Notes under the pieces: generated by a model
The model's input: the letters and a program-made list of their open reading frames with translations, nothing else
Told to the model about the DNA's origin: nothing
Databases searched by the model: none
Made by a program: the position numbers and the translations under genes
Shown here: positions 43,313 through 59,569 of the stretch, in pieces
Position numbering within the stretch: the stretch's first letter is position 1
Layout of the letters: each line of letters starts with the position of its first letter
Assembly (NCBI GenBank): GCA_027493615.1
Contig: JAOSKK010000001.1
Location: 175,629 to 239,628, forward strand
Origin: Verrucomicrobiota bacterium
GTDB taxonomy: Bacteria > Verrucomicrobiota > Verrucomicrobiia > Limisphaerales > J093
Length of the DNA stretch: 64,000 nt
Reading direction: 5' to 3'

Positions 43313-44344
43313 TTATAGGTCTTGGATCTGGGCCCGACGTTGGGGGACATATCCTTGGGCCTGAAACCATTGCATCGCATCAGCCAGGGCCCGCCGCGGG
43401 GGTGTCTGGGGCAGGCCGAGTTCCCGAATGGCCTTGGCAGGAGTGAAGAACATTTTGTACCTCGCCATCCTCACACCCGCGAGGGGCGCGCGCGGGGGGC
43501 GCCACGTCAACCTCGACTTGAATTCGTCAACGTAGGCGGCCGCCAGCGCCAGCCCGTAGGGGATCTTCCATCGCGGAGCCGGTTGCCCGCTCAGTTCCGC
43601 CAGCACCGCCAGCGCTTCCTGCAGCGTCCAGTTGCCCTCGGCATTGCCCAGGATGTAACGCTCGCCTGTCCGACCGTGTTCAGCAGCAAGGACATGGCCG
43701 GCGGCCACATCGCGTACGTGCACCCAGTTCAGTCCGGTGTCCAGGACGGCCGGCAAACGCCGGTTCAGAAAGTCCACCACCACTTGACCGGTCGGAGTGG
43801 GCTTCACGTCCCGCGGACCCACCGGCGCCGTGGGATTCACGATGACGACCGGCAAGCCCCGCTCCGCCTGCTCGCGAGCGATGCCCTCCGCGAGCCACTT
43901 GGAGCGCTTGTAGGGGTTGGTCATTTCCTCGAGAGTCGCCGAGGCCGTCTCGTCCACCGGTTGGGGCTGCGCCACGCCCGGGGCAGGCGGGCGCAATACC
44001 CCGACCGTGCTCGTGTACACGATGCGTCGGCAGCCAGCGTCTCCGGCCGCCCCCAGAACTGCCCGCGTCCCCTCAACGTTGGCGGCGTACAGCGGCGCGT
44101 AGTCCGGCAGCCACAGGTGGTAGCTCGCGGCCACGTGAAAACACCAGTCGCAGCCGCGCAACGCCCGCGTCAACTCGCCGCGATCGGTCAGGGCCGCGGT
44201 CACCGGTTCGTACTCGGCACCTGCCAAGCCGCGCGTGTCCGCTCCCGGCCGCAGCAGCGCCCGCACCGCATGGCCCCGCGCGTTCAACTCATGCACCAAA
44301 TTGGCGCCAACAAAGCCCGTGGCTCCGGTGACAAAACAAAGCAT
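43313..44344 (-). CDS. NAD-dependent epimerase/dehydratase (HpnA / dihydroflavonol-reductase-like)
   Basis: The start is ATG 44344, 'MLCFVTGATGFVGANLVHEL' (GxxGxxG). 'FHVAASYHLW', 'VYTSTVGVL' and the 'PYKRSK' catalytic Y-x3-K are present. The track ORF start at 44455 is an over-extension. Confidence 0.85.
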   Translation of the reverse strand: MLCFVTGATGFVGANLVHELNARGHAVRALLRPGADTRGLAGAEYEPVTAALTDRGELTRALRGCDWCFHVAASYHLWLPDYAPLYAANVEGTRAVLGAAGDAGCRRIVYTSTVGVLRPPAPGVAQPQPVDETASATLEEMTNPYKRSKWLAEGIAREQAERGLPVVIVNPTAPVGPRDVKPTPTGQVVVDFLNRRLPAVLDTGLNWVHVRDVAAGHVLAAEHGRTGERYILGNAEGNWTLQEALAVLAELSGQPAPRWKIPYGLALAAAYVDEFKSRLTWRPPRAPLAGVRMARYKMFFTPAKAIRELGLPQTPPRRALADAMQWFQAQGYVPQRRAQIQDL

Positions 44345-44452
44345 GCGCCGCGTTATGCGGTCGACGCACAAGCGGGGGCAACGAAAAACCCGACCCCTCG
44401 CCGCAGGGTGCCGAAACTGTGACCCTCGCCCTGGCCGGGCCCTGAGCGCCAG

Positions 44453-44481
44453 CACCGAACACCGCAGGCTCGCCGGCCATC
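44453..44481. repeat. Left copy of a ~28-bp direct repeat flanking the AAA+/DUF4143 gene
   Basis: CACCGAACACCGCAGGCTCGCCGGCCATC. Its first 23 nt are identical to 45790..45812, and weaker similarity continues for about 14 nt (CCATC.. TT.ACC). Confidence 0.7.
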
Positions 44482-44554
44482 TCGTTCACCAGAGCGGCGA
44501 CGGCGGGTGAACTTTACGATTGGCCACGAGTGTATTTCACGATAGAACACCGAC

Positions 44555-45769
44555 ATGTTACTACGAGAAACACTGGTCCAGGTGCTGGCCGCGCCCACTG
44601 TGACCCGCCCGCCGCAGGTCGAGGTGCCCCGGGCGGTGCTGGATTCGTTGCGGCGCCCGGCGGACCACGCGCTGGTGCTCACCGGGGTGCGGCGCTGCGG
44701 CAAGAGCACGCTGCAGCAGCAGCTTCGCCGGCGGGAAGGCGGCCCGGCGGTCTTCGGCAACCTGGAGGATACGCGGCTTTACGGGCTGGGGCCGGACGAT
44801 TTCCCCTCCTTGCTTTCGGTCTTGGACGAGCATCATCCCGGCGCGGCGGTGTTCCTCGACGAAGTGCAGGAGGTTCCGGAATGGCCACGGCTCGTCCGGG
44901 CCCTGCTCGAGGCCGGGCGGCGTGTCTGCGTGACCGGCTCGAATGCCTCGCTGCTGGGCCGGGAGTTGGGTGCCAAGCTCACCGGTCGCCACATCTCTGC
45001 CGAGGTCTATCCCTTTTCCTACGGCGAATACTTGGAGTTCCGCGGCCGGGAGCGCGGGCCGGCGACACTGGCCAGCTACTTGGAGGAAGGCGGTTTTCCC
45101 GGTGCCTTGCGCGAGGGCGAGGCCGGCCCGGCGTTGCTGCGGGAACTGCTGCGCGACGTGGTGCAGCGCGACATCGTCTCGCGCTACGCGCTGCGCGACA
45201 CGCGCCACCTGATGAACCTTGTCCTGCACCTGCTGGCGCACACCGGCCAACCGCTGTCCTTGCAGGCGCTGGCCAAGGGGCTGGCGATTCCATCGGTGGC
45301 GCAGGCCGCCCGCTACGTCGAGTATCTGAAAGACGCGTGGCTGCTGCTGGCGGTGCCGAAGTTCAGCGCCTCGTTCAAACGGCGCGTCGTCAGCCCGCCG
45401 AAATACTACGCCATTGACCCCGGCTTTCGCGCCGCCAACACGCCCAACCCCACGCCCGACGTTGGCCGCCGCCTGGAGAACGCGGTCCTGCTCGCCTTGC
45501 GCCGCCAGGGTGCTGCGCCAGCTTACGCGGCGGAACCCCACGATTGGGAATGTGACTTCGTGACACCGGAAACCGCCATCCAGGTCTGCGCCGAACTGAC
45601 GCCGCAAAACCGCGAGCGCGAACTGCGCGGATTGCTGGCCGCGGCGGAACTGCCCGGCGCCCGCGGTCGCAAGCGCGAACTGCTGCTGCTCACGCTCAAC
45701 CAGCGCGACGCGCTCAAGGAGGAAGGCCGCAGCATCCGAGTGCAGCCCGCCTCGGATTGGTTGGATTGA
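44555..45769 (+). CDS. AAA+ ATPase with a C-terminal DUF4143 (COG1373 family)
   Basis: Intact 404-aa ORF. Walker A 'LTGVRRCGKSTL', Walker B 'AVFLDEVQEVPEW', and a C-terminal 'DWECDFVTPETAIQVCAEL' segment typical of the DUF4143 region. It is preceded by a relatively AT-rich 60 bp. Confidence 0.85.
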   Translation: MLLRETLVQVLAAPTVTRPPQVEVPRAVLDSLRRPADHALVLTGVRRCGKSTLQQQLRRREGGPAVFGNLEDTRLYGLGPDDFPSLLSVLDEHHPGAAVFLDEVQEVPEWPRLVRALLEAGRRVCVTGSNASLLGRELGAKLTGRHISAEVYPFSYGEYLEFRGRERGPATLASYLEEGGFPGALREGEAGPALLRELLRDVVQRDIVSRYALRDTRHLMNLVLHLLAHTGQPLSLQALAKGLAIPSVAQAARYVEYLKDAWLLLAVPKFSASFKRRVVSPPKYYAIDPGFRAANTPNPTPDVGRRLENAVLLALRRQGAAPAYAAEPHDWECDFVTPETAIQVCAELTPQNRERELRGLLAAAELPGARGRKRELLLLTLNQRDALKEEGRSIRVQPASDWLD

Positions 45770-45775
45770 TTTCTC

Positions 45776-45967
45776 ATGTCAAAGCCTGCCACCGAACACC
45801 GCAGGCTCGCCGCCATCATGTTTACCGACATCGGGGGCCAACACGCCGGACCCGCAGGAACCCGGGTGGGCGCTTCATGCAGGCCTTTGGTGCCTCGGGC
45901 ATGGGCCTCCGGTGGCCGCGTCGGACACCACGGCGACCCCTTGACTTGGAACGGGCGGCGACCATGA
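45776..45967 (+). pseudogene. Remnant of the N-terminus of a class III adenylate/guanylate cyclase-type protein
   Basis: 'MSKPATEHRRLAAIMFTDI' matches the characteristic start of class III cyclase catalytic domains (..RRLAAIMFTDIVG..). No further cyclase sequence follows in any frame, and only ~160 nt separate it from the TPR coding part. Confidence 0.3.
45789..45817. repeat. Right copy of the direct repeat flanking the AAA+/DUF4143 gene
   Basis: CCACCGAACACCGCAGGCTCGCCGCCATC. It lies within codons 5-14 of the short ORF that starts at 45776. Confidence 0.7.
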
Positions 45968-46392
45968 TTGCCCCCGCAGTTATGGCGCGTGGTTCCAACA
46001 AACCCCTCAGTCCCCAGCAACGTCGCGATCTCGACATCGAGATCAGTTTTCTCGCCGGGTTGACCCGGCGCGATCCCGCCTTCGTCGAAGCCCTTCAGTT
46101 GCTGGGGGATGACTACATTCAGCGCGGCCAGCTCCATGAAGGCACGGCGGTGGATGAGCAGGTCGCGCGGCTGCGGCCCGACGACCCGTCCGTCCAGTAC
46201 AACCTGGCTTGCAGCTACGCCCTCACCCATCGACCCGAGGCCGCGTACGCCGCGCTGAACCGGGCCCTCGACGTGGGATACCGTGACTTCCGCCGGATCT
46301 CACGCGATCCGGATCTCGCCGCGTTCCGCAAGCACCCGCTCTACCGCCAACTCCGCTCCCGCATCCGTACCCTCCGCGTCGAGATCTTCTGA
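45964..46392 (+). CDS. TPR-like repeat protein (C-terminal part of the former cyclase-TPR gene?)
   Basis: 'DPAFVEALQLLGDDYIQRGQLHEGTAVDEQVARLRPDDPSVQYNLACSYALTHRPEAAYAALNRALDVGYRDFRRISRDPDLAAFRKHPLY' shows TPR-like helical pairs. The first in-frame ATG is at 45964. Confidence 0.55.
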   Translation: MIAPAVMARGSNKPLSPQQRRDLDIEISFLAGLTRRDPAFVEALQLLGDDYIQRGQLHEGTAVDEQVARLRPDDPSVQYNLACSYALTHRPEAAYAALNRALDVGYRDFRRISRDPDLAAFRKHPLYRQLRSRIRTLRVEIF

Positions 46393-59495: not shown

Positions 59496-59569
59496 GCGGG
59501 TGTGGTTCAATGGTAGAATGCGGGCTTCCCAAGCCTGAGGCGAGGGTTCGATTCCCTTCACCCGCTCCA
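59496..59569 (+). tRNA. tRNA-Gly (anticodon CCC), with CCA encoded
   Basis: GCGGGTGTGGTTCAATGGTAGAATGCGGGCTTCCCAAGCCTGAGGCGAGGGTTCGATTCCCTTCACCCGCTCCA. The acceptor stem is GCGGGTG/CACCCGC and the anticodon stem is CGGGC/GCCTG with loop TTCCCAA. The T-loop is GGTTCGATTCC. The layout is the same as classical bacterial tRNA-Gly(CCC). Confidence 0.9.

Follow-up and report, generated by a model that had tools for sequence, protein, structure and literature searches.

Direct repeats around a PDC-S01-type ATPase gene of a Verrucomicrobiota bacterium are probably relics of two class III cyclase gene starts

Introduction

To our knowledge the candidate defence family PDC-S01 (COG1373) has neither a known function nor a known partner. 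Its members are ATPases fused to a PD-(D/E)xK domain. They make up the fourth most common predicted defence system across prokaryotes, for which 'Experimental validation is pending' (PMC12988326). One representative was tested and gave no protection against T4, T5 and T7 (bioRxiv 10.1101/2024.09.26.614923). DUF4143 is listed as a PD-(D/E)XK family (PMC3424549). In this study we investigated a gene of the PDC-S01 family in a stretch of 64,000 nucleotides from a Limisphaerales, Pedosphaera-like bacterium of the Verrucomicrobiota (contig JAOSKK010000001.1), hereafter called the window. The gene lies between two copies of a short direct repeat, and a first-pass annotation of the sequence had proposed a solitary mobile gene inserted at the 5' end of a cyclase-TPR gene. 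Here we present evidence that the repeats are probably inherited relics of two cyclase starts from an array of ATPase and cyclase genes.

Results

The repeats and cyclase gene starts

The exact 23-mer CACCGAACACCGCAGGCTCGCCG was found twice in the 64-kb window (Table 1), and none of 100 dinucleotide shuffles contained a match to it, even with up to 3 mismatches allowed. The identity described in the first-pass annotation was thus confirmed. The weaker similarity of ~14 nt past the repeat was also real, but only when a 1-nt indel was permitted: copy 1 has an extra G at 44476, after which 11/14 positions match. The best local alignment of the two copies reached 34/38 (z = 14.7 against shuffles). 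Both copies encode TEHRRLA, as had been noted.

Copy 2 lies in an open reading frame (ORF, 45776-45967) whose ATG is found 6 nt past the stop codon of the ATPase gene and whose N-terminus reads MSKPA-TEHRRLAAIMFTD. We refer to its beginning as stub B and to the corresponding segment around copy 1 as stub A. A cyclase probe retrieved 1290 PF00211 proteins, many of which start with M-x4-TEH(R/K)(R/K)LAAIMFTDMVGYSA, and the family-typical N-terminus M-x4-TEHR(R/K)LAAIMFTD is present in the ORF. Two of these proteins (P0233 and P0149) match stub B over TEHRRLAAIMFTD at 13/13 positions, a match that has to be read with the caveat that the probe joined 18 residues of the stub itself to a cyclase consensus. 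In tblastn the PF00211 proteins aligned to codons 1-24 of the ORF only, and no cyclase catalytic domain was found in it by Pfam even at E <= 10; past the stub the called ORF continues as junk. Hence what had been annotated as a cyclase-like ORF is cyclase-like for its first ~24 codons, whereas as a whole it is a stub of 63 codons. Searches of the PDB by phmmer and of plasmids by tblastn returned nothing for the stub, and a word-indexed protein search with the 63-aa ORF returned only the stub of L008, the locus of Verrucomicrobiales H5_VER1 at ~90% average nucleotide identity (ANI) to the window. The stub is too short for these searches.

In stub A the upstream codons are CTG AGC GCC AGC (LSAS) in the window and ATG AGC GCC GGC (MSAG) in L008, where MSAGTEHRRLA agrees at 10/11 positions with the N-terminus of the PF00211 protein P0216. 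The two repeats of the window have different start codons and differ in their first 4–5 codons. An intact cyclase gene from the metagenome-assembled genome of an unrelated member of the Verrucomicrobiales (L114) has 33–34 of 37 nt in common with copy 2; thus the repeat is a gene-start segment conserved in the family. No ATPase gene was found upstream of this cyclase start or of the other near-identical one (L115). The derivation of the repeat from a cyclase 5' end, as first annotated, therefore stood, since PF00211 proteins start with M-x4-TEHRRLAAIMFTD. Judged from these alignments, the repeats are the 5' ends of two separate class III cyclase genes, each having a start codon of its own. A constraint on the repeat core at the DNA level was considered (19% synonymous differences, compared with 40% in the 43 codons that follow) and was not used, as it is confounded by low codon degeneracy and by pairs that are not independent.

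Between the repeats we found a leader of 44% GC and a single intact ORF of 404 aa, in agreement with the AT-richer leader and the one intact ATPase gene of the first-pass annotation. According to the ORF list and Pfam the ATPase was the only credible ORF in the segment, with no recombinase, integrase or transposase. No inverted repeats were found at the block ends, and the GC content of the segment is no different from that of the surroundings.

The same composite at other loci

Closer homologues of the ATPase in metagenome loci (87–92% aa identity, one 90% cluster) carry the whole composite of stub, ATPase gene and stub. In L116–118 it lies inside a Ser/Thr-kinase array, to which window positions 44443–45830 align at 84.5% over 1390 nt. 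In L116 the flanking repeats agree at 38/43 positions, stub B keeps 62 cyclase codons, and the ATG of stub A overlaps the stop codon of the upstream kinase. In L119, window positions 44443–45734 align; stub A is kept, and the right end of the composite is lost together with the 3' end of the ATPase gene. In L120/121 a decayed cyclase stub of ~77 codons stands before the leader and the flanking repeats reach 155/184. In L120 an intact 707-aa PF00211+TPR gene starts 6 nt past the ATPase stop. Accordingly the right end of the composite differs among copies, being 24 cyclase codons, 62 codons or the full gene. The junction between stub A and the leader in the window looks like an internal deletion of the longer cyclase remnant seen in L120.

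After the cyclase-TPR gene of L120 a second, divergent AAA_14–DUF4143 gene (ATP2) follows, the stop codon of which overlaps the start of a cyclase-PD40 gene. Two consecutive ATPase→cyclase pairs are thereby present in L120:3150-8624, with stop and start 6 nt apart or overlapping. These junctions suggest an operon-like coupling of AAA_14–DUF4143 ATPases with sensor cyclases. ATP2 was not counted as a third bracketed lineage, as its flanks gave only an 11/11 match (z = 1.6).

In L122–124 three ATPase lineages have left remnants in an array that also contains six cyclase 5' fragments within 6 kb. Here the repeats of ATP1 agree at 73/89, and ATP3, which is 27% identical to the window protein, is flanked by 84/94 repeats with paralogue-specific codons. 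The cyclase fragments in L122:1490-7172 range from 14 to 141 codons, and a PIN/VapC-like gene is also found there. The first-pass annotation had named two observations that would speak against its own reading, diverged repeats in the same arrangement and the repeat as a generic motif at unrelated loci. Both were found, in L116, L120 and L122. It had also called the ATPase solitary; this describes its secondary state, whereas in relatives the ATPase gene is first in an ATPase→cyclase pair.

More distant cassettes (82–85% aa identity) were found in five unrelated contexts (L003, L005, L006, L106 and L111). They have in common with the window only the 48-nt leader and the ORF up to its stop codon, and no flanking repeats were found around any of the five. 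The conserved boundaries were rejected as a sign of precise mobility, because at 78–81% nt identity non-coding flanks cannot be aligned anyway. In L106-L110, the loci of one such cassette (P0002, 85% identical, five samples), all contigs end at the same point, 282 nt upstream of the gene; a repeat, or a junction that varies within the population, may interrupt the assemblies there.

Some further observations were made at these loci. Stub A forms an upstream ORF of 34 codons in L116:4887-4991, L119:95-199 and L122:3230-3334; its TAG stop lies in the conserved leader (GATAGAAC) and precedes the ATPase ATG by 10 nt. This frame is broken in the window and in L008. In the array of L116:1-9690 Ser/Thr kinase genes stand in tandem; the C-terminal domains of their products are of the TPR or PD40/Tricorn type, and stop and start codons of successive genes overlap as ATGA. 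A 112-aa ORF after the ATPase of L116 appears to join the 62 cyclase codons to another C-terminal tail (…IENWFEEFRQKK), which may be the C-terminal end of a kinase-PD40 gene.

Insertion into the hpnA–TPR spacer

To the left of the composite the window carries an HpnA-type epimerase gene and to the right a small TPR gene. With the epimerase we scanned one genome per species and obtained 80 loci from Verrucomicrobiota. In ~35 relatives the epimerase gene and the small TPR gene, the latter followed by mtnA, are divergent neighbours with 75–250 bp between them, and neither an ATPase nor a cyclase gene is found in that interval. From this adjacency we concluded that the ATPase block of 1.4–1.5 kb is a derived insertion, as had been proposed. 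The repeat sequence was absent from the empty spacers of the ~35 relatives; the expected empty site with one repeat copy was thus not what these relatives have. In the closest empty site (L009) homology to the window ends at ~44390 and restarts at ~45931, at a conserved TTGACT promoter-like box, which places the foreign DNA within 44391-45930. Empty relatives have an epimerase of <=81% or a TPR protein of <=75% identity to the window (epimerase scan of genomes, TPR scan of metagenomes). In the same two scans L008 was the only filled relative, identical in layout to the window. Two Logan assemblies contain contigs that are near-identical to the window.

In all relatives the TPR orthologue is a stand-alone protein of ~140 aa beside mtnA that starts with MP(K/R)K…RDLD.EI.F. 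By this comparison the TPR gene is native, unrelated to the cassette and no part of any cyclase, and the earlier proposal of an insertion into a cyclase-TPR gene was not upheld. The junk that flanks the stubs (44381-44441 and 45848-45935) had no match in any fetched locus. At 45879 L008 has 52 nt more than the window, bounded by the 10-nt repeat GGGCGCTTCG, of which the window has one copy; the difference resembles the outcome of a microhomology-mediated deletion, as though erosion of the stub region were continuing.

Other DNA was also observed in this spacer. In L072:3089-7759, which corresponds to window positions ~44345-45963, it holds a gene for a 1556-aa Eco57I/MmeI-type (type IIG) restriction-modification protein, and in L062 ~3.8 kb of other genes. 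Apparently the hpnA–TPR spacer is an insertion hot spot that has repeatedly taken up DNA, defence-type genes included. In a metagenome relative (L088:1-120) heptamers of the CTTCGGA type form a long tandem array upstream of the TPR gene. The sole Rfam/ARAGORN match in the window was a tRNA-Gly(CCC) at 59496-59569, unrelated to the repeat feature.

Table 1. Features of the window around the ATPase gene, from left to right.
Feature	Position	Strand	Basis
HpnA-type NAD-dependent sugar epimerase, native left neighbour	43313..44344	-	Pfam Epimerase 5.9e-33; NCBIfam TIGR03466 HpnA 8.7e-121
Native spacer	44345..44390		blastn: still alignable with empty site of L009 to ~44390
51 nt, donor cyclase upstream sequence or fast-evolving native spacer	44391..44441		not alignable to L009, L116/L119/L120/L122
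Stub A: decayed class III cyclase 5' end, ~codons 1-17	44442..44490	+	CTG start, +1 frameshift at 44476
Direct repeat copy 1	44453..44475	+	exact 23 nt, similarity reaching 44490
Stub-to-leader spacer	44491..44506		homologous to L116/L119 spacer (multiple alignment)
Conserved leader CTTTACGATTGGCCAC-N3-TGTATyTCAyGATAGAACACCGrC-ATG	44507..44554	+	kept in every ATP1 copy regardless of context
AAA_14 + winged helix-turn-helix + DUF4143 ATPase, 404 aa, PADLOC PDC-S01 family	44555..45769	+	intact ORF
Stub B: first ~24 codons of the module's class III cyclase, MSKPATEHRRLAAIMFTDIGGQHA	45776..45847	+	tblastn of PF00211 proteins
Direct repeat copy 2	45790..45812	+	exact 23 nt, similarity reaching 45826
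83 nt junk right of stub B	45848..45930		no match in fetched loci
Native right neighbour: promoter-like TTGACT-16-CATGAT (45941-45968) and stand-alone TPR gene (45964-46392)	45931..46392	+	L009 homology, promoter scan, NCBIfam TPR_END_plus

The ATPase protein

The protein, identical to NCBI MCZ7634777.1, contains AAA_14 (PF13173, 1.6e-27) and DUF4143 (PF13635, 1.7e-14, residues 204-337). The PADLOC profile of PDC-S01 (PDLC04787) matches residues 26-403 of 404 with an E-value of 9.7e-86, a membership in a candidate defence family that supports the suggested possible link to defence. In an alignment of 125 family sequences the Walker A residues G44, G49 and K50 are invariant, and D102 and E103 are conserved to >=90%. 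No sequence-level relative was found in the PDB and none in the viral contigs that were searched.

The full-length AlphaFold2 (AF2) model has a predicted local distance difference test score (pLDDT) of 95.6, and Foldseek matched it to MalT, Orc1/Cdc6, RuvB, RFC and Avs (AAA+/STAND). For a model of the C-terminal domain (pLDDT 93.8) McrC was the top match (prob 0.98-0.99, E 3e-3), at a moderate template modelling (TM) score of 0.44-0.46, followed by DdmD, Can2, Vsr, Hjc and NucS. These models support an αβββα restriction-endonuclease-like PD-(D/E)xK fold of the C-terminal domain, in line with what the first-pass annotation had cited for DUF4143. The canonical D…(D/E)xK is lacking: strand β3 reads I-Q343-V-C345, which agrees with the consensus 'IQVC' of 125 relatives. 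The domain does conserve E308, E332 and D334, an alternative active site with R355/E356 may exist, and the divergent paralogues ATP2 and ATP3 carry E-x-K. Nuclease competence is uncertain, as QVC stands in place of (D/E)xK. Taken as a whole the modelled ATPase looks like an ATP-dependent DNA-binding protein with an Orc1/Cdc6- or STAND-like AAA+ part, a winged helix and an McrC-like nuclease-fold domain. In the fuller form of the module it is probably co-transcribed with a sensor-type cyclase.

The leader and recent exchange of the cassette

By inspection the leader contains promoter-like elements, TTGGCC (44520-44525) and TAGAAC (44543-44548) separated by a 17-nt spacer, with the ATG 7 nt downstream; a scan with strict promoter consensus did not call this promoter. 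If used, the putative promoter suggests a leaderless or near-leaderless ATPase mRNA.

Compared with L008 the ATPase gene has a synonymous divergence (dS) of 0.037 and a ratio of non-synonymous to synonymous divergence (dN/dS) of ~0.05, with 12 synonymous and 2 non-synonymous differences. The flanking genes have a dS of 0.24–0.54, so that the ATPase value is ~10-fold lower. The tract of low divergence extends from 44509 to ~45786 and hence comprises the leader and the ORF, whereas the stubs are 5–15% diverged, as are the flanks. The low dS relative to the flanks points to a recent exchange limited to the cassette. The simplest reading is that the resident cassette was recently overwritten by a near-identical copy whose homology to the locus was confined to the cassette, with leader and ORF as the tract. 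If this holds, such cassettes would circulate horizontally. The ATPase gene is intact and evidently under purifying selection.

Discussion

Origin of the repeats

The explanation we favour is that the repeats were inherited from a source array. The source would be modules of the type 'AAA_14–DUF4143 ATPase → class III cyclase', which are found in arrays in related Verrucomicrobiota. A piece of ~1.4–1.5 kb would have entered the hpnA–TPR spacer in an ancestor that the window organism shares with its relative at ~90% ANI. It would have comprised a cyclase 5' stub, spacer, ATPase promoter-leader, ATPase gene, 6 nt and the beginning of the cyclase gene of the same module. The 23–38-nt repeat would then be the conserved segment of codons 5–17 (TEHRRLAAIMFTD) of two cyclase starts, not made by integration here. 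Thereafter the cyclase body would have been deleted, with microhomology-mediated erosion still ongoing, and the ATPase cassette (leader and ORF) would have been overwritten by an almost identical copy. Of the alternatives offered by the first-pass annotation, the observations come closest to recombination between paralogous gene starts.

Several points weigh against this explanation. Neither a donor locus nor a relative with a full cyclase gene in the hpnA–TPR spacer was found, and the ends of the insertion could be placed no more precisely than to 51 nt (left) and 83 nt (right). The cyclase remnants observed beside these ATPases are all 5' fragments, and no cyclase 3' fragment was found in L122, the only array searched with a full-length TPR-type cyclase query. 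The 5'-only fragments and the 84/94 repeats of ATP3 hint at a systematic duplication instead of random array decay; the evidence for this comprises only two independent junctions. Later gene conversion between the stubs could explain why the 23-nt run is perfect in the window, compared with 21/23 in L008. The function of the ATPase is, moreover, one that we infer throughout.

That the repeats are attL/attR sites or a long target-site duplication from site-specific integration at this locus, as had been considered in the first-pass annotation, we regard as highly improbable. At unrelated loci, too, the cassette is found with this repeat pair, diverged to an identity of 84–92%, and the empty sites of ~35 relatives are without the sequence; both observations argue against att sites and against a target duplication made by this insertion. 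Distinct start codons and first 4–5 codons leave no clean duplication, and the five solo cassettes have no flanking repeats. With no recombinase (neither integrase nor transposase), no repeat in the empty site and no terminal inverted repeats, the block has the hallmarks of neither an att element nor a transposon with target duplication. In favour of the att or target-duplication reading are an exact 23-nt repeat around a single gene, a block that is an insertion relative to other genomes and a spacer that in L072 also houses a type IIG restriction-modification gene. Homing by the nuclease, in which the PD-(D/E)xK-like domain of the ATPase would cut cassette-free cyclase 5' ends and repair from the filled copy would spread the cassette, as with free-standing homing endonuclease genes, seems equally far-fetched to us. 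It would account for two divergent ATPase lineages between duplicated cyclase starts, for the McrC-like nuclease fold and for the recent cassette-limited exchange between lineages, but QVC for the canonical (D/E)xK is the family consensus and makes catalytic competence doubtful, and the five solo cassettes lie in cyclase-free contexts.

A Campbell-type hopping is rather unlikely in our judgement, albeit better placed than these two. Here the unit would loop out via the cyclase-start repeats and RecA would re-integrate it into the 5' end of any cyclase paralogue through the ~40–200-nt conserved segment, regenerating a left stub and a complete right cyclase; the repeats would be the functional ends of a recombinase-less mobile cassette and the cyclase family its landing pads. 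The composite is indeed found in at least 4 different contexts with one stub-to-leader junction, and the first 4 codons of stub A vary by context (MSAG, MSAA, MNAG, MTPA) around a constant core. The overlap of the kinase stop and the stub ATG in L116 is as expected if the left start codon belonged to a resident array gene, the right copy is a full cyclase gene in L120, the ATP3 repeats have paralogue-specific codons, and the six cyclase 5' fragments of L122 resemble tandem att scars at a hot spot. However, neither an empty/filled pair of one cyclase paralogue nor a circular junction was seen, and none of the relatives has a resident cyclase gene at the hpnA–TPR site, so at least the copy in the window arrived another way. 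At a neutral divergence of ~40–50% a sharp left boundary is indistinguishable from decayed homology, except in L116. The cyclase 5' regions of L116 and L120 are by eye about as similar as the ATPase genes, which would fit co-inheritance. As to how the cyclase-start duplication first arose, array decay, Campbell-type integration and nuclease homing are all compatible with the data. In itself the feature in the window is real and, for the most part, a commonplace evolutionary scar around one member of a known but uncharacterised family of ATPases, and we retain the inheritance of two cyclase starts from an array as its explanation.

Wider meaning

In one group of Verrucomicrobiota a PDC-S01-type gene typically precedes a sensor-type class III cyclase gene, with which it forms a pair. 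Two divergent ATPase lineages are bracketed by duplicated cyclase gene starts, and a minimal cassette of 48-nt leader and ORF has been exchanged between lineages far more recently than its flanks. A broader proposal would be that AAA_14–DUF4143 ATPases are recombinase-less cassettes in the 5' ends of sensor cyclase genes, a large family conserved at the DNA level, or that they form an undescribed ATPase and cyclase module for signalling or defence; we consider it doubtful. In the cassette version each insertion may duplicate the cyclase start, with survival of the host gene, and the duplicated segment may be a homology handle for excision and for hopping to other paralogues or genomes. If either version were true, the most abundant unexplained 'defence candidate' would gain a partner gene and a way to spread. 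What deserves follow-up is the repeated pairing of ATPase and cyclase genes and the pattern of start duplication at related loci, and if one of them is systematic it provides a testable handle on the role and the spread of the ATPase.

Comparison with known systems

With McrBC the ATPase has in common an AAA+ NTPase and an McrC-like nuclease fold (best match 6hz4_M, prob 0.99, TM 0.46). It differs in being one polypeptide with an intervening winged helix, whereas McrBC consists of the AAA+ motor McrB plus the nuclease McrC, and its AAA+ part is nearer to MalT, Orc1-Cdc6 and RuvB than to McrB. Genomic islands at tRNA genes and gene ends (attL/attR) resemble the locus in the gene-terminus direct repeat around inserted DNA and, at L122, in the tandem gene-end fragments. 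Unlike such islands the block in the window is without an integrase, the repeats measure 38 to 184 nt with differing first codons, and the repeat pair accompanies the cassette to loci that do not contain the target gene.

In homology-facilitated illegitimate recombination a short homology anchors the event on one side, and orphan cassettes of contact-dependent inhibition (CDI) and Rhs systems contain a short, conserved piece of a gene that acts as a handle for recombination. Here too a conserved fragment of a multi-copy family lies beside a variable cassette and could be a one-sided homology anchor. The fragment is a 5' end, however, not a 3' end, and the cassette has its own promoter and start, without in-frame swapping. 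The closest described relative is PDC-S01 itself, with the same AAA_14 and DUF4143 architecture and a single-gene cassette in variable contexts. The clade of the window differs in having QVC at the expected (D/E)xK, and while PDC-S01 is defined as solitary, here and in L116, L120 and L122 its gene is the first of a (former) pair with a class III cyclase gene.

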